The notes beneath the pieces are model-generated. The model made no database searches. It saw only the letters and a list, made by a program, of their open reading frames with translations, and was not told the DNA's origin. Below are positions 1 through 16,110 of a stretch of 64,000 nucleotides of DNA, in pieces (the stretch's first letter is position 1; the number at the start of each line of letters is the position of its first letter). This DNA is from Mayamaea pseudoterrestris (taxonomy: Eukaryota), in contig BROI01000017.1 of assembly GCA_027923505.1 (NCBI GenBank), forward strand, positions 496,001-560,000. Direction: 5' to 3'. The translations under genes and the position numbers were made by a program.

Positions 1-684
1 TCTTTTCACTCGCTTCTTGGAGAAAATGTTGGATCTAGAATATATCTTGCGCGCCCTTGAAGCGACACTAATGATTAAGCAGAACAGAGTCAATAAAACC
101 ACTTTACTTATTTTCTCCAAGAAGTGATCGTCCTCGATCCACTCCTTCGGTTGCCGCTTACCGCGCTTACTTAAATGTGACCGTCTTCGTGACGTCACCG
201 CTGCCGCTTCGGTTTGGGTTCTCATCCATGCTCAACACGTCGGATCGCTAGCGACGACAGACGATAGGCTATTTGCGACGCATTGGCCAGCTCGAAAAAA
301 GCGGAAGAAGCATCCTCGCCATTGATCAAAATGTTTGGAAAGATGAGTGGTTCTATGTCGGAGTTGTGGGCCATAACGGTGATTGGAGATACTTGATTTG
401 TCGTCGATGTAAACGAGCGAGTTGAATGATGGGCGGTGCATAATATATTATGGTCGACCGTCAATAAGAACAGTGTCGTTCCGGTATTTAGAGCATGCCG
501 TTGAGACATATTACAACGAACTGTGGTGCGACCTACCGGTACGTTGACGGTAGCCTATCCTCTGTCCAAACTCACAGTCAAACCAAGCTGAGCAATCCTC
601 AATTTACCTACTATAGGAAGCATCAGCATTGTTAGTGGTTACTTCAAAGTGAACCTTTCACTGGTAGGCAGGATGTGATTCAGC

Positions 685-3600
685 ACTGGTGACAAGTTGT
701 CACCAAAGACATTGCCATCCCCTGAGACACCAGCCAAGCTTACCATCTTGTAGCGCAGCCTGAAAAAGGATGTTGGCACCATTCTGGTGTAATTTGGCAC
801 CTACAGGGCCTGCTGTAGGGGCGTTTGAATGTCATGGCATCTGCGGGCTGAGACTGGTGACAAGTTGTCACCAAATATATTGCCATCCCCTGAGACACCA
901 GCCAAGCTTACCATCTTGTAGCGCAGCCTATATAATGATGTTGGCACCATTCTGGTGTGATTTGGGCACCTACCGGGCTTGCTGTAGGTGTGTCTGAAAG
1001 TCATGGCATCTGCAGGCAGAGACTGGTGACAAGTTGTAGCAAATACCATGCAGTCCCCTGAGACACCATCTGAAGGCTGGGACTGGTGACAAGTTGTCAG
1101 CAAATACCATGCAGTCCCCTGAGACAAAGCCAGGCATACCATCTTGTAGCGCATCCCATTTAATGATGTGGCACCATTCTGGTGTCATTTGGGTGTATCC
1201 ATGGCCTGCTGTAGGGGCATTTGAATGTCAAGGCATCTGCAGGCTGAGACTGGTGACAAGTTGTCACCAAATACATTGCCGTCCCCTGAGACAAATGCCA
1301 GGCATACCATCTTGTTGTGTAGCCTCAATTATGATGTTGGCACCATTCTGGTGTCATTTGGGTGTATACATGGCCTGCTGTAGGAGCATTTGAATGTCAA
1401 GGCATCTGCGGGCTGAGACTGGTGACAAGTTGTCACCAAATACATTGCAATCCCATGAGACACCCGCCAAGCTTACCATCTTGTAGCGCAGCTAGAAACT
1501 GATGTTGGCACCATTCTGGGGTAAGTTTGGCACCTACAGGGCCTGCTGTAGGGGCGTTTGAATGTCATGGCATCTGCAGGCTGAGACTGGTGACAAGTTG
1601 TCACCAAATACATTGCCATCCCCTGAGACACCAGCCAAGCTTACCATCTTGTAGCGCAGCCTATAAAATGATGTTGGCACCATTCTGGTGTAATTTGGGC
1701 ACCTACAGGGCCTGCTGTAGGGGCATTTGAATGTCATGGCATCTGCGGGCTGAGACTGGTGACAAGTTGTCACCAAATACATTGCCATCCCCTGAGACAC
1801 CAGCCAAGCTTACCATGATGTAGCACAGCCGGAAAAATGATGTTGGCACCATTGTGGTGTAATTTGGGCACCTACAGGGCCTGCTGTAGGGGCGTTTGAA
1901 TGTCATGGCATCTGTCGGCTTAGACTGGTGACAAGTTGTCACCAAATACATTGCCATCCCCTGAGACACCAGCCAAGCTTACCATGTTGTAGCGCAGCCT
2001 GAAAAATGATGTTGGCACCATTCTGGTGTAAATTGGGCACCTACAGGGCCTGCTGTAGGGGCGTTTGAATGTCATGGCATCTGCGGGCTGAGACTGGTGA
2101 GAAGTTGTCACCAAATACATTGCCATCCCCTGAGACACCAGCCAAGCTTACCATCTTGTAGCGCAGCCTAAAAAATGATGTTGGCACCATTCTGGTGTAA
2201 TTTGGGCATCTACAGGGCCTGCTGTAGGGGCGTATGAATGTCATGGCATCTGCGGGCTGAGACTGGTGACAAGTTGTCACCAAATACATTGCCATCCCCT
2301 GAGACACCAGCCAAGCTTACCATCTTGTAGCGCAGCCTGAATAATGATGTTGGCACCATTCTGGTGTAATTTGGGCACCTACAGGGCCTGCTGTAGGGGC
2401 GTTTGAATGTTGCAGCATCTGCGGGTTGAGGCTGGTGACAAGTTGTCACCAAATACATTGCCATCCCCTGAGCCACCAGCCAAGCTTACCCTCTTGTAGC
2501 GCAGCCTGAATAATGATGTTGGCACCATTCTGGTGTAAATTGGGCACCTACAGGGCCTGCTGTAGGGGCGTTTGAATGTCATGGCATCTGCGGGCTGAGA
2601 CTGGTGACAAGTTGTCACCAAATACATTGCCATCCCCTGAGACACCAGCCAAGCTTACCATCTTGTAGCGCAGCCTGAACAAGGATGTTGGCACCATTCT
2701 GGTGTAAATTGGGCACCTACAGGGCCTGCTTTAGGGGCGTTTGAATGTCATGGCATCTGCGGGCTGAGACTGGTGACAAGTTGTCACCAAATACATTGCC
2801 ATCCCCTGAGACACCAGCCAAGCTTACCATCTTGTAGCGCAGCCTGAATAATGATGTTGGCACCATTCTGGTGTAAATTGGGCACCTACAGGGCCTGCTG
2901 TAGGGGCGTTTGAATGTTGCGGCATCTGCGGGCTGAGACTGGTGACAAGTTGTCACCAAATACATTGCCATCCCCTGAGACACCAGCCAAGCTTACCATC
3001 TTGTAGCGCAGCCTGAATAATGATGTTGGCACCATTCTGGTGTAATTTGGGCACCTACAGGGCCTGCTGTAGGGGCGTTTGAATGTCATGGCATCTGCGG
3101 GCTGAGACTGGTGACAAGTTGTCACCAAATACATTGCCATCCCCTGAGACACCAGCCAAGCTTACCATCTTGTAGCGCAGCCTGAATAATGATGTTGGCA
3201 CCATTCTGGTGTAATTTGGGCACCTACAGGGCCTGCTGTAGGGGCGTTTGAATGTCATGGCATCTGCGGGCTGAGACTGGTGACAAGTTGTCACCAAATA
3301 CATTGCCATCCCCTGAGACACCAGCCAAGCTTACCATCTTGTAGCGCAGCCTGAATAATGATGTTGGCACCATTCTGGTGTAAATTGGGCACCTACAGGG
3401 CCTGCTGTAGGGGCGTTTGAATGTCATGGCATCTGCGGGCTGAGACTGGTGACAAGTTGTCACCAAATACATTGCCATCCCCTGAGACACCAGCCAAGCT
3501 TACCATCTTGTAGCGCAGCCTGAATAATGATGTTGGCACCATTCTGGTGTAAATTGGGCACCTACAGGGCCTGCTGTAGGGGCGTTTGAATGTCATGGCA

Positions 3601-6600
3601 TCTGTGGGCTGAGACTGGTGACAAGTTGTCACCAAATACATTGCCATCCCCTGAGACACCAGCCAAGCTTACCATCTTGTAGCGCAGCCTGAAAAATGAT
3701 GTTGGCACCATTCTGGTGTAAATTGGGCACCTACAGGGCCTGCTGTAGGGGCGTTTGAATGTCATGGCATCTGCGGGCTGAGACTGGTGACAAGTTGTCA
3801 CCAAATACATTGCCATCCCCTGAGACACCAGCCAAGCTTACCATCTTGTAGCGCAGCCTGAATAATGATGTTGGCACCATTCTGGTGTAAATTGGGCACC
3901 TACAGGGCCTGCTGTAGGGGCGTTTGAATGTCATGGCATCTGCGGGCTGAGACTGGTGACAAGTTGTCACCAAATACATTGCCATCCCCTGAGACACCAG
4001 CCAAGCTTACCATCTTGTAGCGCAGCCTATATAATGATGTTGGCACCATTCTGGTGTAATTTGGGCATCTACAGGGCCTGCTGTAGGTGTGTTTGAATGT
4101 CATGGCATCTGCGGGCTGAGACTGGTGACAAGTTGTCACCAAATACATTGCCATCCCCTGAGACACCTGCCAAGCTTACCATCTTGTAGCGCAGCCTGAA
4201 TAATGATGTTGGCACCATTCTGGTGTAATTTGGGCACCTACAGGGCCTGCTGTAGGTGTGTTTGAATGTCATGGCATCTGCGGGCTGAGACTGGTGACAA
4301 GTTGTCACCAAATACATTGCCATCCCCTGAGACACCAGCCAAGCTTACCATCTTGTAGCGCAGCCTGAATAATGATGTTGGCACCATTCTGGTGTAATTT
4401 GGGCACCTACAGGGCCTGCTGTAGGGGCGTTTGAATGTCATGGCATCTGCGGGCTGAGACTGGTGACAAGTTGTCACCAAATACATTGCCATCCCCTGAG
4501 ACACCAGCCAAGCTTACCATCTTGTAGCGCAGCCTGAATAATGATGTTGGCACCATTCTGGTGTACATTGGGCACCTACAGGGCCTGCTGTAGGGGCGTT
4601 TGAATGTCATGGCATCTGCGGGCTGAGACTGGTGACAAGTTGTCACCAAATACATTGCCATCCCCTGAGACACCAGCCAAGCTTACCATCTTGTAGCGCA
4701 GCCTGAATAATGATGTTGGCACCATTCTGGTGTAATTTGGGCACCTACAGGGCCTGCTGTAGGGGCGTTTGAATGTCATGGCATCTGCGGGCTGAGACTG
4801 GTGACAAGTTGTCACCAAATACATTGCCATCCCCTGAGACACCAGCCAAGCTTACCATCTTGTAGCGCAGCCTGAAAAATGATGTTGGCACCATTCTGGT
4901 GTAATTTGGGCACCTACAGGGCCTGCTGTAGGGGCGTTTGAATGTCATGGCATCTGCGGGCTGAAGACTGGTGACAAGTTGTCACCAAATACATTGCCAT
5001 CCCCTGAGACACCAGCCAAGCTTACCATCTTGTAGCGCAGCCTGAATAATGATGTTGGCACCATTCTGGTGTAAATTGGGCACCTACAGGGCCTGCTGTA
5101 GGGGCGTTTGAATGTCATGGCATCTGCGGGCTGAGACTGGTGACAAGTTGTCACCAAATACATTGCCATCCCCTGAGACACCAGCCAAGCTTACCATCTT
5201 GTAGCGCAGCCTGAATAATGATGTTGGCACCATTCTGGTGTAAATTGGGCACCTACAGGGCCTGCTGTAGGGGCGTTTGAATGTCATGGCATCTGCGGCT
5301 GAGACTGGTGACAAGTTGTCACCAAATACATTGCCATCCCCTGAGACACCAGCCAAGCTTACCATCTTGTAGCGCAGCCTGAAAAATGATGTTGGCACCA
5401 TTCTGGTGTAATTTGGGCACCTACAGGGCCTGCTGTAGGGGCGTTTGAATGTCATGGCATCTGCGGGCTGAGACTGGTGACAAGTTGTCACCAAATACAT
5501 TGCCATCCCCTGAGACACCAGCCAAGCTTACCATCTTGTAGCGCAGCCTGAATAATGATGTTGGCACCATTCTGGTGTAATTTGGGCACCTACAGGGCCT
5601 GCTGTAGGGGCGTTTGAATGTCATGGCATCTGCGGGCTGAGACTGGTGACAAGTTGTCACCAAATACATTGCCATCCCCTGAGACACCAGCCAAGCTTAC
5701 CATCTTGTAGCGCAGCCTGAATAATGATGTTGGCACCATTCTGGTGTAACTTGGGCACCTACAGGGCCTGCTGTAGGTGCGTTTGAATGTCATGGCATCT
5801 GCGGGCTGAGACTGGTGACAAGTTGTCACCAAATACATTGCCATCCCCTGAGACACCAGCCAAGCTTACCATCTTGTAGCGCAGCCTGAATAATGATGTT
5901 GGCACCATTCTGGTGTAATTTGGGCACCTACAGGGCCTGCTGTAGGGGCGTTTGAATGTCATGGCATCTGCGGGCTGAGACTGGTGACAAGTTGTCACCA
6001 AATACATTGCCATCCCCTGAGACACCAGCCAAGCTTACCATCTTGTAGCGCAGCCTGAATAATGATGTTGGCACCATTCTGGTGTAATTTGGGCACCTAC
6101 AGGGCCTGCTGTAGGGGCGTTTGAATGTCATGGCATCTGCGGGCTGAGACTGGTGACAAGTTGTCACCAAATACATTGCCATCCCCTGAGACACCAGCCA
6201 AGCTTACCATCTTGTAGCGCAGCCTGAATAATGATGTTGGCACCATTCTGGTGTAATTTGGGCACCTACAGGGCCTGCTGTAGGGGCGTTTGAATGTCAT
6301 GGCATCTGCGGGCTGAGACTGGTGACAAGTTGTCACCAAATACATTGCCATCCCCTGAGACACCAGCCAAGCTTACCATCTTGTAGCGCAGCCTGAATAA
6401 TGATGTTGGCACCATTCTGGTGTAATTTGGGCACCTACAGGGCCTGCTGTAGGGGCGTTTGAATGTCATGGCATCTGCGGGCTGAGACTGGTGACAAGTT
6501 GTCACCAAATACATTGCCATCCCCTGAGACACCAGCCAAGCTTACCATCTTGTAGCGCAGCCTGAATAATGATGTTGGCACCATTCTGGTGTAACTTGGG

Positions 6601-9600
6601 CACCTACAGGGCCTGCTGTAGGGGCGTTTGAATGTCATGGCATCTGCGGGCTGAGACTGGTGACAAGTTGTCACCAAATACATTGCCATCCCCTGAGACA
6701 CCAGCCAAGCTTACCATCTTGTAGCGCAGCCTGAATAATGATGTTGGCACCATTCTGGTGTAATTTGGGCACCTACAGGGCCTGCTGTAGGGGCGTTTGA
6801 ATGTCATGGCATCTGCGGGCTGAGACTGGTGACAAGTTGTCACCAAATACATTGCCATCCCCTGAGACACCAGCCAAGCTTACCATCTTGTAGCGCAGCC
6901 TGAATAATGATGTTGGCACCATTCTGGTGTAATTTGGGCACCTACAGGGCCTGCTGTAGGGGCGTTTGAATGTCATGGCATCTGCAGGCTGAGACTGGTG
7001 ACAAGTTGTCACCAAATACATTGCCATCCCCTGAGACACCAGCCAAGCTTACCATCTTGTAGCGCAGCCTGAATAATGATGTTGGCACCATTCTGGTGTA
7101 AATTGGGCACCTACAGGGCCTGCTGTAGGGGCGTTTGAATGTCATGGCATCTGCGGGCTGAGACTGGTGACAAGTTGTCACCAAATACATTGCCATCCCC
7201 TGAGACACCAGCCAAGCTTACCATGTTGTAGCGCAGCCTGAAAAATGATGTTGGCACCATTCTGGTGTAAATTGGGCACCTACAGGGCCTGCTGTAGGGG
7301 CGTTTGAATGTCATGGCATCTGCGGGCTGAGACTGGTGACAAGTTGTCACCAAATACATTGCCATCCCCTGAGACACCAGCCAAGCTTACCATCTTGTAG
7401 CGCAGCCTGAATAATGATGTTGGCACCATTCTGGTGTAAATTGGGCACCTACAGGGCCTGCTGTAGGGGCGTTTGAATGTCATGGCATCTGCGGGCTGAG
7501 ACTGGTGACAAGTTGTCACCAAATACATTGCCATCCCCTGAGACACCAGCCAAGCTTACCATCTTGTAGCGCAGCCTGAATAATGATGTTGGCACCATTC
7601 TGGTGTAATTTGGGCACCTACAGGGCCTGCTGTAGGGGCGTTTGAATGTCATGGCATCTGCGGGCTGAGACTGGTGACAAGTTGTCACCAAATACATTGC
7701 CATCCCCTGAGACACCAGCCAAGCTTACCATCTTGTAGCGCAGCCTGAATAATGATGTTGGCACCATTCTGGTGTAATTTGGGCACCTACAGGGCCTGCT
7801 GTAGGGGCGTTTGAATGTCATGGCATCTGCGGGCTGAGACTGGTGACAAGTTGTCACCAAATACATTGCCATCCCCTGAGACACCAGCCAAGCTTACCAT
7901 CTTGTAGCGCAGCCTGAATAATGATGTTGGCACCATTCTGGTGTAAATTGGGCACCTACAGGGCCTGCTGTAGGGGCGTTTGAATGTCATGGCATCTGCG
8001 GGCTGAGACTGGTGACAAGTTGTCACCAAATACATTGCCATCCCCTGAGACACCAGCCAAGCTTACCATCTTGTAGCGCAGCCTGAATAATGATGTTGGC
8101 ACCATTCTGGTGTAAATTGGGCACCTACAGGGCCTGCTGTAGGGGCGTTTGAATGTCATGGCATCTGCGGGCTGAGACTGGTGACAAGTTGTCACCAAAT
8201 ACATTGCCATCCCCTGAGACACCAGCCAAGCTTACCATGTTGTAGCGCAGTCTGAATAATGATGTTGGCACCATTCTGGTGTAATTTGGGCACCTACAGG
8301 GCCTGCTGTAGGGGCATTTGAATGTCATGGCATCTGCGGGCTGAGACTGGTGACAAGTTGTCACCAAATACATTGCCATCCCCTGAGACACCAGCCAAGC
8401 TTACCATCTTGTAGCGCAGCCTGAATAATGATGTTGGCACCATTCTGGTGTAAATTGGGCACCTACAGGGCCTGCTGTAGGGGCGTTTGAATGTCATGGC
8501 ATCTGCAGGCTGAGACTGGTGACAAGTTGTCACCAAATACATTGCCATCCCCTGAGACACCAGCCAAGCTTACCATCTTGTAGCGCAGCCTGAATAATGA
8601 TGTTGGCACCATTCTGGTGTAATTTGGGCACCTACAGGGCCTGCTGTAGGGGCGTTTGAATGTCATGGCATCTGCGGGCTGAGACTGGTGACAAGTTGTC
8701 ACCAAATACATTGCCATCCCCTGAGACACCAGCCAAGCTTACCATCTTGTAGCGCAGCCTGAATAATGATGTTGGCACCATTCTGGTGTAATTTGGGCAC
8801 CTACAGGGCCTGCTGTAGGGGCGTTTGAATGTCATGGCATCTGCGGGCTGAGACTGGTGACAAGTTGTCACCAAATACATTGCCATCCCCTGAGACACCA
8901 GCCAAGCTTACCATCTTGTAGCGCAGCCTGAATAATGATGTTGGCACCATTCTGGTGTAAATTGGGCACCTACAGGGCCTGCTGTAGGGGCATTCGAATG
9001 TTGCGGCATCTGCGGGCTGAGACTGGTGACAAGTTGTCACCAAATACATTGCCATCACTGTCTGAGAACCAGCCAAGCTTACCATCTTGTAGCGCAGCCT
9101 GAATAATGATGTTGGCACCATTCTGGTGTAATTTGGGCACCTACAGGGCCTGCTGTAGGGGCGTTTGAATGTCATGGCATCTGCGGGCTGAGACTGGTGA
9201 CAAGTTGTCACCAAATACATTGCCATCCCCTGAGACACCAGCCAAGCTTACCATCTTGTAGCGCAGCCTGAATAATGATGTTGGCACCATTCTGGTGTAA
9301 TTTGGGCACCTACAGGGCCTGCTGTAGGGGCGTTTGAATGTCATGGCATCTGCAGGCTGAGACTGGTGACAAGTTGTCACCAAATACATTGCCATCCCCT
9401 GAGACACCAGCCAAGCTTACCATCTTGTAGCGCAGCCTGAATAATGATGTTGGCACCATTCTGGTGTAATTTGGGCACCTACAGGGCCTGCTGTAGGGGC
9501 ATTTGAATGTCATGGCATCTGCGGGCTGAGACTGGTGACAAGTTGTCACCAAATACATTGCCATCCCCTGAGACACCAGCCAAGCTTACCATCTTGTAGC

Positions 9601-12600
9601 GCAGCCTGAATAATGATGTTGGCACCATTTTTGGTGTAATTTGGGCACCTACAGGGCCTGCTGTAGGGGCGTTTGAGAGTCATGGCATCTGCGGGCTGAG
9701 ACTGGTGACAAGTTGTCACCAAATACATTGCCATCCCCTGAGACACCAGCCAAGCTTACCATCTTGTAGCGCAGCCTGAATAATGATGTTGGCACCATTT
9801 GGTGTAATTTGGGCACCTACAGGGCCTGCTGGGGTTTGTTTGAATGTCATGGCATCTGCAGGCTGAGACTGGTGACAAGTTGTCACCAAATACATTGCCA
9901 TCCCTTGAGACACAAGCCAAGCTTACCATCCTGTAGCGCAGCCTATATAATGATGTTGGCACCGTTTTAGTGTAAATTGGGCACCTACAGGGCCTGTTGT
10001 AGGGGTGTTTGAATGTCATGGCATCTGCAGGCTGAGACTGGTGACAAGTTGTCACCAAATACATTGCTGTCCCCTGAGACACCTGCCAAGCTTACCATCT
10101 TGTAGCGCAGCCTGAAAAAGGATGTTGGCACCGGATTTGGTGCCGGGCCGTTTGAATGTCATGGCATCTGCGGGCGGAGACTGGTGACAAGTTGTCACCA
10201 AATACATTGCCATCCCCTGAGACACCAGCCAAGCTTACCATCTTGTAGCGCAGCCTGAATAATGATGTTGGCACCATTCTGGCTGTAGATGGCCGGCGTT
10301 TGGTGGCATCTGCGGGCTGAGACTGGTGACAAGTTGTCAAACCTGAGACATCAGCCAAGCTTACCATCTTGTAGCGCAGCCTGAATAATGATGTTGGCAC
10401 CATTCTGGTGTAATTTGGGCACCTACAGGGCCTGCTGTAGGGGCGTTTGAATGTCATGGCATCTGCGGGCTGAGACTGGTGACAAGTTGTCACCAAATAC
10501 ATTGCCATCCCCTGAGACACCAGCCAAGCTTACCATCTTGTAGCGCAGCCTGAATAATGATGTTGGCACCATTCTGGTGTAATTTGGGCACCTACAGGGC
10601 CTGCTGTAGGTGTGTTTGAATGTAATGGCATCTGCGGGCTGAGACTGGTGACAAGTTGTCACCAAATACATTGCCATCCCCTGAGACACCAGCCAAGCTT
10701 ACCATCTTGTAGCGCAGCCTGAATAATGATGTTGGCACCATTCTGGTGTAATTTGGGCACCTACAGGGCCTGCTGTAGGGGGTGTTTGAATGTCATGGCA
10801 TCTGCGGGCTGAGACTGGTGACAAGTTGTCACCAAATACATTGCCATCCCCTGAGACACCAGCCAAGCTTACCATCTTGTAGCGCAGCCTGAATAATGAT
10901 GTTGGCACCATTCTGGTGTAATTTGGGCACCTACAGGGCCTGCTGTAGGGGCATTCGAATGTTGCGGCATCTGCGGGCTGAGACTGGTGACAAGTTGTCA
11001 CCAAATACATTGCCATCCCCTGAGACATCAGCCAAGCTTACCATGTTGTAGCGCAGTCTGAATAATGATGTTGGCACCATTCTGGTGTAATTTGGGCACC
11101 TACAGGGCCTGCTGTAGGGGCATTTGCTGTCATGGCATCTGCGGCTGAGACTGGTGACAAGTTGTCACCAAATACATTGCCATCCCCTGAGACACCAGCC
11201 AAGCTTACCATCTTGTAGCGCAGCCTGAATAATGATGTTGGCACCATTCTGGTGTAATTTGGGCACCTACAGGGCCTGCTGTAGGGGCATTCGAATGTTG
11301 CGGCATCTGCGGGCTGAGACTGGTGACAAGTTGTCACCAAATATGCCACCCGGCTATCATGGCATCTTTTAGGCTGGAGACTGGTGACGAAGCGCTTACC
11401 ATCTTGTAGCGCAGCCTGAATAATGATGTTGGCACCATTCTGGTGTAATTTGGGCACCTACAGGGCCTGCTGTAGGGGCGTTTGAATGTCATGGCATCTG
11501 CGGGCTGAGACTGGTGACAAGTTGTCACCAAATACATTGCCATCCCCTGAGACACCAGCCAAGCTTACCATCTTGTAGCGCAGCCTATAAAATGATGTTG
11601 GCACCATTCTGGTGTAATTTGGGCACCTACAGGGCCTGCTGTAGGGGCGTTTGAATGTCATGGCATCTGCAGGCTGAGACTGGTGACAAGTTGTCACCAA
11701 ATACATTGCCATCCCCTGAGACACCAGCCAAGCTTACCATCTTGAAGCGCAGCCTGAATAATGATGTTGGCACCATTCTGGTGTAATTTGGGCACCTACA
11801 GGGCCTGCTGTAGGGGCGTTTGAATGTCATGGCATCTGCGGGCTGAGACTGGTGACAAGTTGTCACCAAATACATTGCCATCCCCTGAGACACCAGCCAA
11901 GCTTACCATCTTGTAGCACAGCCTGAAAAAGGATGTTGGCATCCTTCTGGTGTAATTTGGGCACCTACAGGGCCTGCTTTAGGGGCGTTTGAATGTCATG
12001 GCATCTGCGGGCTGAAACTGGTGACAAGTTGTCACCAAATACATTGCCATCCCCTGAGACACCAGCCAAGCTTACCATCTTGTAGCGCAGCCTGAAAAAT
12101 GATGTTGGCACCATTCTGGTGTAAATTGGGCACCTACAGGGCCTGATGTAGGCTGTTTGAATGTCATGGCATCTGCAGGCTGAGACTGGTGACAAGTTGT
12201 CACCAAATACATTGCCATCCCCTGAGACACCAGCCAAGCTTACCATCTTGTAGTGCAGCCTAAAAAATGATGTTGGCACCATTCTGGTGTAATTTGGGCA
12301 CCTACAGGGCCTGCTGTAGGGGCGTTTGAATGTCATGGCATCTGCGGGCTGAGACTGGTGACAAGTTGTCACCAAATACATTGCCATCCCCTGAGACACC
12401 AGCCAAGCTTACCATCTTGTAGCGCAGCCTGAATAATGATGTTGGCACCATTCTGGTGTAAATTGGGCACCTACAGGGCCTGCTGTAGGGGCGTTTGAAT
12501 GTTGCGGCATCTGCGGGCTGAGACTGGTGACAAGTTGTCACCAAATACATTGCCATCCCCTGAGACACCAGCCAAGCTTACCATCTTGTAGCGCAGCCTA

Positions 12601-14366
12601 AAAAATGATGTTGGCACCATTCTGGTGTAATTTGGGCACCTACAGGGCCTGCTGTAGGGGCGTTTGAATGTCATGGCATCTTTGGGCTGAGACTGGTGAC
12701 AAGTTGTCACCAAATACATTGCCATCCCCTGAGACACCAGCCAAGCTTACCATCTTGTAGCGCAGCCTGAATAATGATGTTGGCACAGGGCCTGCTGTAG
12801 GGGCGTTTGAATGTCATGGCATCTGCAGGCTGAGACTGGTGACAAGTTGTCACCAAATACATTGCCATCCCCTGAGACACCAGCCAAGCTTACCATCTTG
12901 TAGCGCAGCCTGCAAAATGATGTTGGCACCATTCTGGTGTAATTTGGGCACCTACAGGGCCTGCTGTAGGGGCGTTTGAATGTCATGGCATCTGCAGGCT
13001 GAGACTGGTGACAAGTTGTCACCAAATACATTGCCATCCCCTGAGACACCAGCCAAGCTTACCATCTTGTAGCGCAGCCTGAAAAAGGATGTTGGCACCA
13101 TTCTGGTGTAATTTGGGCACCTACAGGGCCTGCTGTAGGGGCGATTGAATGTCATGGCATCTGCGGCTGAGACTGGTGACAAGTTGTCACCAAATACATT
13201 GCCATCCCCTGAGACACCAGCCAAGCTTACCATGTTGTAGCGCAGTCTGAATAATGATGTTGGCACCATTCTGGTGTAATTTGGGCACCTACAGGGCCTG
13301 CTGTAGGGGCATTTGAATGTCATGGCATCTGCAGGCTGAGACTGGTGACAAGTTGTCACCAAATACATTGCCATCCCCTGAGACACCAGCCAAGCTTACC
13401 ATCTTGAAGCGCAGCCTGAAAAATGATGTTGGCACCATTCTGGTGTAATTTGGGCACCTACGGGCCTGCTGTAGGGGCGTTTGAATGTCGCGGCATCTGC
13501 GGGCTGAGACTGGTGACAAGTTGTCACCAAATACATTGCCACCCCCTGAGACACCCGCCAATTTTACCATCTTGTAGCGCAGCCTAAAAAATGATGTTGG
13601 CACCATTCTGGTGTAAATCTGGGCACCTACAGGGCCTGCTGTAGGGGCGTTTGAATGTCATGGCGTCTGTGGGCTGAGACTGGTGACAAGTTGTCACCAA
13701 ATACATTGCCATCCCCTGAGACACCAGCCAAGCTTACCATCTTGTAGCGCAGCCTGAATAATGATGTTGGCACCATTCTGGTGTACATTGGGCACCTACA
13801 GGGCTTGTTGTAGATATGTTTGAATGTCATGGCATCTGTGGGCTGAGACTGGTGACAAGTTGTCACCAAATACATTGCCATCCCCTGAGACACTAGCCAA
13901 GCTTACCATCTTGTAGCGCAGCCTATATAATGATGTTGGCACCATTCTGGTGTAATTTGGGCATCTACAGGGCCTGCTGTAGGTGTGTTTGAATGTAATG
14001 GCATCTGCGGGCTGAGACTGGTGACAAGTTGTCACCAAATACATTGCCATCCCCTGAGACACCAGCCAAGCTTAACATCTTGTAGCGCAGCCTGAAAAAT
14101 GATGTTGGCACCATTCTGGTGTAATTTGGGCATACACATGGCTCAAGGTATGGGCATTTGAAAAGCATGGCAGCTGCTGGCTGAGATTGGTGAGAAGTTC
14201 TCACCAGTCACATTGCAGTCTACTAGGACACTAGCCAGGCATACCATCTTGTAGCGCAGACTGAATAATGATGTTGACACCATTCTGGTGTGATTTGGGT
14301 GTCAACATGGCGTGTTATCTGGGCAATTGAATGTCAAGGCATCTGTGGGCTGAGACTGGTGAGAAG
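685..14366. repeat. Tandem satellite array, 169-bp monomer, about 81 copies
   Basis: Consensus CTGGTGACAAGTTGTCACCAAATACATTGCCATCCCCTGAGACACCAGCCAAGCTTACCATCTTGTAGCGCAGCCTGAATAATGATGTTGGCACCATTCTGGTGTAATTTGGGCACCTACAGGGCCTGCTGTAGGGGCGTTTGAATGTCATGGCATCTGCGGGCTGAGA, repeated head-to-tail. The ORF track repeats with a 169-bp period. About 51% GC by hand count. One HindIII site per monomer. Edge monomers are diverged. Confidence 0.99.
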
Positions 14367-14548
14367 CAGTCTACTCACCCGCCAGATTGTTGGATCTGCT
14401 GAGTTTCACCGTGCCATGCATGGAGATGGATTCAAGGTGCTACTGACCCAATTGTTTCTTTTAAATGACATAAAATATCAATTGAAAGGTTTTGACTGTC
14501 TTGGTTGGCCATTCTAATGATCCCTGTGCCGAAAATGGGGCACTGCTG

Positions 14549-15017
14549 GCACAGTCAACCTTTAAGACTGATAAGTTAGAAATCAATCAGTGACGTCATC
14601 AAGCGCCGGACGGACGTCACGAGAAAACTTCAAATCAAGTTCGCGTCGCCCTTTTTCACCAACGCGCAAAGCAGCGACAGTGCAACAAAGCTTCTACATC
14701 AATCTACAGACAACCAACTAACGATTTATAAAGAAAGATGTTGGCGCAGACTGGTCCCGTCGCTTGGGTATAGATTCTTTGGGGATGTTGAGGTGCGGAA
14801 CGATTTTCGCTCAAGCGGGCAGGTGCGACATCCATCGGTACTCGACTGCGTCTTAGGATTGCTCGCGCACCTCCTCTCCGATTTTCACTCGTTGGTAACC
14901 GTTGGAAAGCCCGTCGAGTCGTTAATGAAATGTGATGCATAACTAAAAAACGTCAAAAAGGTCATTATGACGTCACTGAAGGCATTCTAACTTATCAGTC
15001 TTTTTTGTTGAATGTGC
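14549..15017. mobile_element. 469-bp segment bounded by 51-bp imperfect inverted repeats (MITE-like or foldback element)
   Basis: 14549-14599 matches the reverse complement of 14967-15017 at 42/51 positions, including perfect blocks AAGACTGATAAGTTAGAA and TCAGTGACGTCAT. No convincing internal ORF and no clear target-site duplication. Confidence 0.45.
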
Positions 15018-15309
15018 TCAGTCTCTTGGCATAGTGATGGGTTCTGCACACAATTTGTGAACTCTATTGGTCCAATACATTCATGAACAACTTCAATCAT
15101 GTTAGTTTTTCGGAAGTGTCAGGCCACTCTGGCAGTCTGGGTGCCAACTGGGCTGTACATGGCGCAGGCAAATTCCGCGAAGCGTCGCATTTCCTACGCA
15201 TGCCAAACGGCAGACCAAACGAGGTACAGATCACAAACGGTAAAAATATCGCTAATACTCAACATTTCGTAGTTTTGTTGTGCTCTCTAAAAGACAGTGA
15301 ATAAAGAGC

Positions 15310-15400
15310 ATGCGTCGACGGCAAAGCAATATCGGAGCAAACACACGCATCAATCATTGATGCAGCAATTGTTCGTCATTCTTGCCTTGTCGCGACGCAT
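15310..15400 (-). promoter_or_regulatory. SECIS element in the 3' UTR of the SelT-like gene
   Basis: Minus-strand hairpin: ATGCGTCG/CGACGCAT and CGACAAGGCAA/TTGCTTTGCCG form helix I. The core is ATGAC (15379-15375) with CGAT (15334-15331), a tandem GA/AG quartet. Helix II is GAACAATTGC/GTGTTTGCTC. It lies directly downstream of a UGA-containing SelT ORF. Confidence 0.8.
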
Positions 15401-15425
15401 CGCGCCTTACGTCATCTTCATTCGC

Positions 15426-16110
15426 TCATGTACGCTTCATCAAGCCCATGGCCGACATGCCGTTAATCATGTCCTCCATGGTTGGAAACTGACCAGTCTC
15501 CAACTTGCTCCATACCTTCTTCTCGTCAAGATAGATTTCGAAAGCTCCGGTTATCAACCATTTCGACAATACTTGCGGTAGAATCAAGAATAAAGCAATA
15601 CCAATCTGCAGCGAATTGTTTCGAATCGACTCGTACCATCTTGGAATGCCTTGGTAGCCAAGCATTCGCAAGACTCTCTCTCCTCCAAAGAACATGTAAA
15701 GCAGCGCCATTAGTTGCAACATGGATAAGAGATTGCTAATAAGCTCGGCCACTGGCGGTGGAGGATAGTTTTGACCTTCAATGTGTCCGCGCAGCTCTGG
15801 GTATGAGTTTTCGAGGAACTGAGCCATGGAGACAAAGTTCCTCTTCATGCCTCAGCCCATGCAATAGAATATTTTTACCGAATGCTGTACAAATTTGTTG
15901 CTTTCAGAGTCTGCTGCATTAACGAGCGCATGCTATGGAAACGAAACGAAAGTATATACATTTGTGAGCAGGAAGGCCGAATGACGCTCCATCGCTCAAA
16001 CAGCTCCAGAGACTCACCGTCTCAAATTCCTGAGACATTGCTATTGCCGAAAGCAGCAACAGCAGGAGGGCGGACAACGACCGTGTCGAAAGAACCAGCA
16101 TGGTGGTCAT
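15426..16110 (-). CDS. SELT: Selenoprotein T-like (Rdx family) with Sec in a CxxU motif; 2 exons (16110-16018, 15884-15426)
   Basis: A signal-peptide exon splices (GT at 16017, AG at 15886-15885, phase 0) to HSVKIFYC-M-G-TGA-GMKRNF...YPELRGHIEGQNYPPPP...TGAFEI..VWSKLETGQFP, the SelT signature. In-frame TGA at 15854-15852. SECIS downstream. Confidence 0.92.

Follow-up and report, generated by a model that had tools for sequence, protein, structure and literature searches.

Layered turnover of satellite DNA has been described in the centromeres of humans and plants and in euchromatic satellites of insects. For human alpha satellite, the accessible text of Altemose et al. (bioRxiv 10.1101/2021.07.12.452052) describes a layered expansion that requires mirror symmetry and allows seeding between arrays, and it notes such patterns in non-centromeric arrays too. 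Among insects, gene conversion or circular DNA has been proposed for the Rsp-like repeats in 1.688 clusters of Drosophila (Sproul et al. 2020, PMC7403614), and the variability of end monomers in the Cast satellites of Tribolium castaneum has been attributed to less efficient recombination (PMC11610590), both as set out in the accessible parts of these papers. Here we describe a 169-bp satellite array in a diatom, Mayamaea pseudoterrestris. It occupies one end of a 64,000-nucleotide stretch (the window) of contig BROI01000017.1 in GenBank assembly GCA_027923505.1 (30.6 Mb, 41 contigs), which is C17:496001-560000 in our contig numbering. Layering of monomer classes is real and genome-wide in this family. 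What stands at one end of an array is independent of what stands at the other, and symmetry is not general.

A first-pass annotation of the window had read both array edges as one older monomer type, split by a newer variant that amplified in the middle. The motifs behind that proposal lie exactly where it placed them: CCAGGCATACC at 1130, 1298 and 14235 (three copies, against 75 of its core counterpart CCAAGCTTACC), GTCAAGGC at 1227, 1396 and 14333 (67 copies of the core counterpart GTCATGGC), TTTGGGTGT at 1188, 1357 and 14294, and TGCAGTC at 1049, 1110 and 14214. A 60-bp deleted monomer and two core-like outermost monomers, also noted at the left edge, are likewise present (m3 and m1-m2 in Table 1). 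Scored against the commonest monomer of the array, 11 variants are common to the left edge (m3-m5) and the right edge (m81-m83). Six of them (columns 53, 56, 115, 116, 118 and 152) occur in no other window monomer, which among 82 monomers is not chance. Two more (columns 33 and 123) are found elsewhere only in one rearranged interior monomer each, and the remaining three (columns 32, 117 and 140) reappear in ordinary core-type monomers. The edges also differ, with 24 left-only and 39 right-only variants, some of which come from two poorly aligned stubs.

What these shared variants mean becomes clear from the family as a whole. Exact 14-nt class motifs matched 383 times for class a, 3,195 times for class c and 2,127 times for the B side (the "edge" motif). 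These 5,705 matches imply at least 5,705 monomers, or ∼0.96 Mb, ∼3% of the assembly. We fetched ∼967 kb around the matches; a profile identified 3,592 monomer hits there, which we sorted into classes a, c, B1, B2, other B and relic (R). In the fetched DNA the monomers form arrays of 2–35 kb at no fewer than 61 loci on 26 contigs, 16 of which carry more than one locus, with up to five on one contig. Long head-to-tail arrays of a unit above 100 bp, high copy number and many loci are what is expected of a satellite, and the window array is evidently noncoding: its open reading frames (ORFs) reach only ∼140 aa and are created by indels within the repeat. The array has a GC content of 51% and no higher-order repeat, and window positions 1-16000 gave no Rfam match. 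Diversity between arrays is 23% for R, 7.6% for a, 6.1% for c and 3.8% for B1. A tree of the monomers separates the B side (77 rows) from an a/c clade (102 rows) with support of 99/99, and the motifs shared by the two edges are variants that separate these two groups. Because the whole B side carries them, including its most uniform class, B1, they do not mark age. Indeed, arrays bearing the edge motif can be large and very uniform, as at C1:609771-638189 (171 monomers) and C28:116638-144954 (167 monomers).

The two edges of the window array fall into different variant classes. Judged by distances and by the tree, the left edge classes as a short tract of B2 and the right edge as relic, giving the order a a [B2 tract] a...a [R R] [348-bp unit]. 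From m82, the left-edge monomers m4 and m5 differ by 19.9% and 19.0%, and the core likewise differs from m82 by 19.0%; 2,629 of the 2,794 full-length monomers of other arrays are nearer to m4 than m82 is. The closest relatives of m4 and m5 belong to a B2 array on C29 (Table 1) with a mean pairwise distance of 6.3%. By contrast, m82 groups with end monomers of other arrays, its nearest monomer elsewhere lying 10% away (C2:464.5 kb), and the 3′ part of m81 is a second relic type, 2–9% from end monomers on C8, C19, C6, C7 and C21. The tree comprised 179 rows (11 window monomers, up to two core monomers per segment, and edge B monomers, with hybrids including m81 excluded), and the group to be tested was fixed before the tree was inspected. 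Forcing m4, m5 and m82 together costs 77.5 log-likelihood units (approximately unbiased, AU, test, p = 0.007), and the raw distances agree with this rejection. Left- and right-edge monomers thus do not cluster together, and the proposal of a single edge type split by the core fails in this array. The suggestion that the edges are older is supported for the right edge, whose relic class is likely old, and is not supported for the left, whose B2 tract lies between core-type monomers.

Comparison with other arrays shows that what this locus displays in part is widespread. We counted classes at array ends, skipping segments of fewer than 12 monomers, cores with less than 70% of one class, cut ends and a duplicate of the left edge on C29. 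With the window excluded, an uncut end is at most six monomers away for 40 of 45 m82-like and 19 of 19 m81-like relic monomers, compared with 534 of all 2,794 monomers. After the classes were refined, R was present at 20 of the 83 uncut ends in arrays with an a/c core but at only 3 of 1,674 interior positions. Of these 20 ends, 19 are independent, and they are spread over 10 contigs. B-side monomers make up 45 of the 310 monomers in the outer five positions of free a/c-array ends, against 10.5 under a rotation null (p = 0.0002; 3,224 hits, after 134 overlapping spurious ones were removed from 3,358). In turn, a/c monomers stand at 7 of 16 ends of B1 arrays, whereas among the 83 ends of a/c arrays B1 is found at 1 (Fisher p = 6e-6). 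One array, C28:116638-144954, displays all three layers: its B1 core is bordered by c on either side, and R lies outermost at the 3′ end. On C29, the B2 array begins with c monomers at its own 5′ end.

These observations give a consistent order, with R outside a/c and a/c outside B1, the ages being inferred. Between the young classes the direction follows from the nesting, since a/c surrounds B1 and rarely the reverse, and the likely order of replacement is R, then a/c, then B1. R would be the oldest layer on the strength of its diversity and outermost position. It follows from this order that the edge motif marks both the oldest and the youngest layers. Symmetry is another matter. Among 33 complete a/c arrays, B-side or R monomers occur at both ends in 5, only at the 5′ end in 9, only at the 3′ end in 4 and at neither in 15, with no coupling of the ends (p = 0.44). 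R is at both ends in 3 of the 33 (C3:595 kb, C8:995 kb and C9:948 kb), and mirror symmetry is thus seen in these and at C28, and not in the window, where B2 is on the left and R on the right. Of the first-pass picture, layered replacement is borne out across many arrays of the genome, and the mirror symmetry is not.

The more symmetric layer of the window array lies within class a. Divergence from the column majority is 0.7% in the middle fifth and 4.2% in each outer fifth, so the uniform center and more diverged flanks described at first pass are real. From left to right, mean substitutions relative to the commonest monomer are 7.5, 5.3, 1.2, 1.3, 4.9 and 4.9. That monomer has 14 identical copies here and is found in no other fetched array. 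The two class-a flanks have 19 variants in common, of which five are missing from the middle, and these 19 are commoner in class-a monomers elsewhere (median 6.5%) than singletons are (1%). Both the flank-shared variants and the array-specific commonest monomer fit the view that a variant expanded locally and recently within a class-a block that was already there. Uniform centers recur in the family: of 30 complete arrays, the left outer fifth is more diverged than the middle in 22, the right in 24 and both in 17.

We consider it probable that the arrays are dispersed blocks into which newer variants are copied from other arrays and then amplified in the interior by unequal exchange, the outermost monomers likely escaping homogenization, a mechanism with parallels in animals and plants. 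Ectopic recombination or gene conversion would carry variants from one array to another, as suggested by the scars these processes may have left: hybrid monomers (298 of the 3,592 hits) and flanks duplicated together with edge monomers. Unequal exchange would then spread the variants and would be least efficient at array ends, such that each end may retain whatever class was last there, independent of the other. At the window locus, an R array would first have stood beside the 348-bp unit, with the right edge as its remnant, and class a would then have filled the locus. A piece of B2 would have lodged near the left end, either copied in there or left from a B2 block later flanked by class a, before the duplication seen on C29; one array-specific class-a variant may finally have expanded in the middle. 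A centromere role is not needed for such layering. Some arrays are rich in hybrids with a B-type 5′ half and an a/c-type 3′ half (C8:13-18 kb, C21:400-407 kb and C7:317-323 kb), suggesting that recombinants themselves can be amplified. Flanks are also common to arrays on different contigs. A mobile element with fixed ends, of the Helitron or miniature inverted-repeat transposable element type, was considered as a carrier of the array and rejected, as 600-bp flanks match only between two or a few arrays at a time and share no terminus. The left flank of the window array has two copies in the genome.

Several points weigh against this explanation. The sample holds ∼3,600 of at least 5,700 monomers and was picked from motif matches, the R markers were taken from the window's own edge monomers, and the class thresholds were set by the analyst. 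Neither B-side nor R monomers occur at either end of 15 of the 33 complete a/c arrays. The U-shaped divergence of the window array is equaled by 12 of 77 rotations and is weak taken alone. Recombination between monomers, evident in the hybrids, and an unsettled bootstrap weaken the tree test, and the tree is rooted only at its midpoint, the 347/348-bp satellite having failed as an outgroup. Finally, no public contig spans the array, and collapse or polishing could inflate the uniformity of its center.

The split of one ancestral edge-type array by a variant amplified in its middle, which would make the two edges sisters, is an unlikely alternative. It would account for the six variants exclusive to both edges and for the position of both edges on the B side of the tree; same-class symmetry does exist at the three a/c arrays with R at both ends and, for c, at C28, and the ancestral array could have been mixed. 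The edges of the window array nevertheless differ by 19–20%, other contigs hold far closer relatives of each, and the AU test rejects their union. Class-a monomers lie outside the left tract, and the c monomers at the 5′ end of the B2 array on C29 imply that B2 is not simply older than a/c. Array ends are also independent of each other across the genome. In its strict form this model is largely refuted.

It is improbable that the arrays are centromere units whose young cores are kinetochore-selected, by analogy with what has been proposed for human alpha satellite. A nucleosome-sized unit that makes up at least 3% of the assembly and carries a conserved palindrome would suit such a role, as would the gene-poor block on the left, which contains a 347-bp array and a stretch resembling a retrotransposon. 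The family has 61 loci on 26 contigs, though, with up to five per contig; a centromere repeat should have one main locus per chromosome, and 16 of the 26 contigs, which are not necessarily whole chromosomes, have more than one, leaving the centromere analogy drawn at first pass unsupported. A predicted ORF lies 1 kb away. Published diatom centromeres, as far as the accessible text of these sources describes them, are low-GC in Phaeodactylum (10.1101/096016) and 1.4–2 kb long, low-GC and without highly repeated elements in Fistulifera (10.1101/2021.11.10.468027). They come from the same group of organisms and are short low-GC regions, in contrast to the 51% GC tandem array described here. A related and equally doubtful possibility is that dozens of arrays record at least three successive sweeps (R, a/c and B1), with the youngest class marking the functional centromere or chromatin favored by drive. 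If that were true, this would be the first satellite-type, turnover-driven diatom centromere and a small system in which to test whether kinetochores cause layering. If only one class binds CENH3, the selection hypothesis becomes testable in a small alga; if none does, layering needs no kinetochore selection.

That collapsed or polished repeats produced a uniform center and chimeric edges is very unlikely, for although no contig spans the array, garbled monomers occur at 10037-11509 and C29 breaks inside the duplicated copy, the left-edge order recurs in that separately assembled, slightly different copy, contigs of two sequencing runs support the joint between relic monomers and the 348-bp unit, and relic classes recur at 19 independent ends.

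Table 1. Features of the 169-bp array and its surroundings, in window coordinates
Feature	Position	Strand	Remarks
169-bp satellite array	685..14375	+	82 monomers and a 21-nt stub; C17:496685-510375
m1-m2	685..1021	+	Core type (class a), outside the left B tract
m3	1022..1081	+	60-bp B-side monomer with internal deletion; also in the copy at the C29 end
m4-m5	1082..1417	+	Class B2; nearest monomers in B2 array C29:130719-144658, at 4.2% and 5.9%
m6-m14	1418..2937	+	Class a left flank; mean 5.3 substitutions relative to the commonest monomer
m15-m54	2938..9700	+	Homogeneous core; mean 1.2-1.3 substitutions
m55-m80	9701..14016	+	Class a right flank; mean 4.9 substitutions
Rearranged monomers	10037-10474, 11319-11509, 12692-12834		Inside the right flank
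m81	14017..14185	+	Hybrid; 5′ part class a, 3′ part (from ∼14130) relic type
m82	14186..14354	+	Relic class; palindrome with compensatory double change
Palindrome (example)	2940..2958	.	19 nt, arms of 9 bp around a 1-nt loop; at the start of each monomer
Left flank	238..684	+	447 bp; a 98% copy, left-edge monomers included, lies at the C29 end (C29:327565-329369)
347/348-bp satellite unit	14376..15152	+	One degenerate unit, abutting the array on the right; interrupted by the 439-bp element
439-bp element	14564..15002	.	Terminal inverted repeats, 3-bp TTT target duplication; in the loop of the 348-unit palindrome
Nearest ORF right of the array	15426..15848	-	Rdx family; ∼1 kb away

The short palindrome of each monomer is conserved, with a majority frequency of 99.2% compared with 93.5% elsewhere in the monomer. 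Compensatory double changes occur in 16 monomers, against 6 and 4 single changes, and the loop has changed from G to C in 25 monomers, mostly edge or relic, as a hairpin flip would give. Two palindromes of this kind, with arms of 13 bp, occur in the 348-bp family. No stable fold of the whole monomer was detected (z = −0.23). Array ends do not prefer the palindrome itself: 19 of 119 lie in columns 1-24, where 14% are expected (p = 0.33). Just before it, in columns 145-169, there are 35 of the 119 ends, which is a hint only, as this interval was chosen post hoc, the ends are partly non-independent and the profile favors conserved stretches. Transitions at CpG reach 6.6% at 4 sites compared with 1.2% at 76 other C/G sites, a pattern from which we infer that the arrays may be CG-methylated silent chromatin.

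The copy at the C29 end repeats the left flank and edge in their internal order of a, a, 60-bp monomer and B2, at 0.6–1.8% difference per monomer. It holds one class-a monomer more than the window, and its B2 tract has since acquired a deleted unit of 128 bp, present about four times. The copy was considered as the other haplotype of the window locus and set aside, as nothing on C17 matches the 3 kb upstream of the flank that the two loci share. We read it as a duplicated block; a haplotype structural variant is conceivable.

On the right, contigs of runs X1 and X3 join across the 439-bp element, whose empty sites are found at C29:72.5 kb and C2:461.9 kb. In these contigs, 169-bp repeat sequence of relic type also passes into the 348-bp unit at the position seen in the window, where the joint is placed at 14228-14376 by the analyst's reading. 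The two runs come from two studies, one of them possibly the source of the assembly; X2 and X4 contributed small pieces only. The 347/348-bp satellite was tried as an outgroup and rejected, its half-units being not significantly alignable to the 169-bp unit (best z ∼4 among 12 comparisons). Left of the window, at C17:486-496 kb, stand a 347-bp array on the opposite strand and then a broken retrotransposon-like stretch. That stretch holds a zinc-knuckle ORF recognized by Pfam and two other ORFs that may be copia-like and that have no Pfam match. Short inverted repeats lie left of the array at 256-271/551-566 (16 nt) and 10-27/110-127 (18 nt), at 94%.

Elsewhere in the assembly, arrays change strand at C1:638189-638393, C30:259996, C19:431333-431351 and C7:206283; at the C1 switch, the two 5′ flanks have a 227-bp inverted copy in common. 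A third satellite, a 352-bp dimer (172+180), is found at C1:605-607 kb beside the large B1 array and also adjoins other 169-bp arrays. Apart from satellites, C1:2970661-2974680 encodes three silicon-transporter domains in one 1,445-aa open frame, and the assembly has six long matches to PF03842 (silicon transporter); such genes are typical of diatoms and identify the assembly as one.

A literature search, with supplements and most subscription papers outside it, found no description of such a satellite in diatoms, and the word diatom is absent from the accessible text of a 325-genome centromere atlas, in which most higher-order repeats lie in array centers. Layered turnover is a known process that we here find in a group where it seems to be undescribed. 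In this genome the layering can be followed in dozens of fully readable arrays of 2–35 kb in 30.6 Mb, with its order readable from nesting. As far as the accessible parts of the cited sources allow comparison, the diatom arrays resemble human alpha satellite in having a young uniform core, diverged outer layers, seeding from within and from other arrays, and a unit of ∼170 bp. They are kilobases rather than megabases long, though, with several loci per contig and layers of one to six monomers; their ends are independent and often of different class, and the window array has no higher-order repeat. Like the Rsp-like repeats in 1.688 clusters (PMC7403614), they are small dispersed arrays near genes, with newer repeats inside older ones, hybrids at junctions and mixed blocks that move with their flanks. 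Those clusters combine two unrelated repeats, whereas the diatom classes are subfamilies 80–95% alike in at least three nested layers. Like Cast1-Cast9 of Tribolium castaneum (PMC11610590), they form many dispersed arrays in gene-rich DNA, exchange between chromosomes and have more variable end monomers, but where the Cast ends are described as degenerate, the diatom ends show a shared relic class and an order of replacement. Overall, in scale and dispersal, the Rsp-like/1.688 and Cast satellites are closer to the diatom arrays than the human model is.

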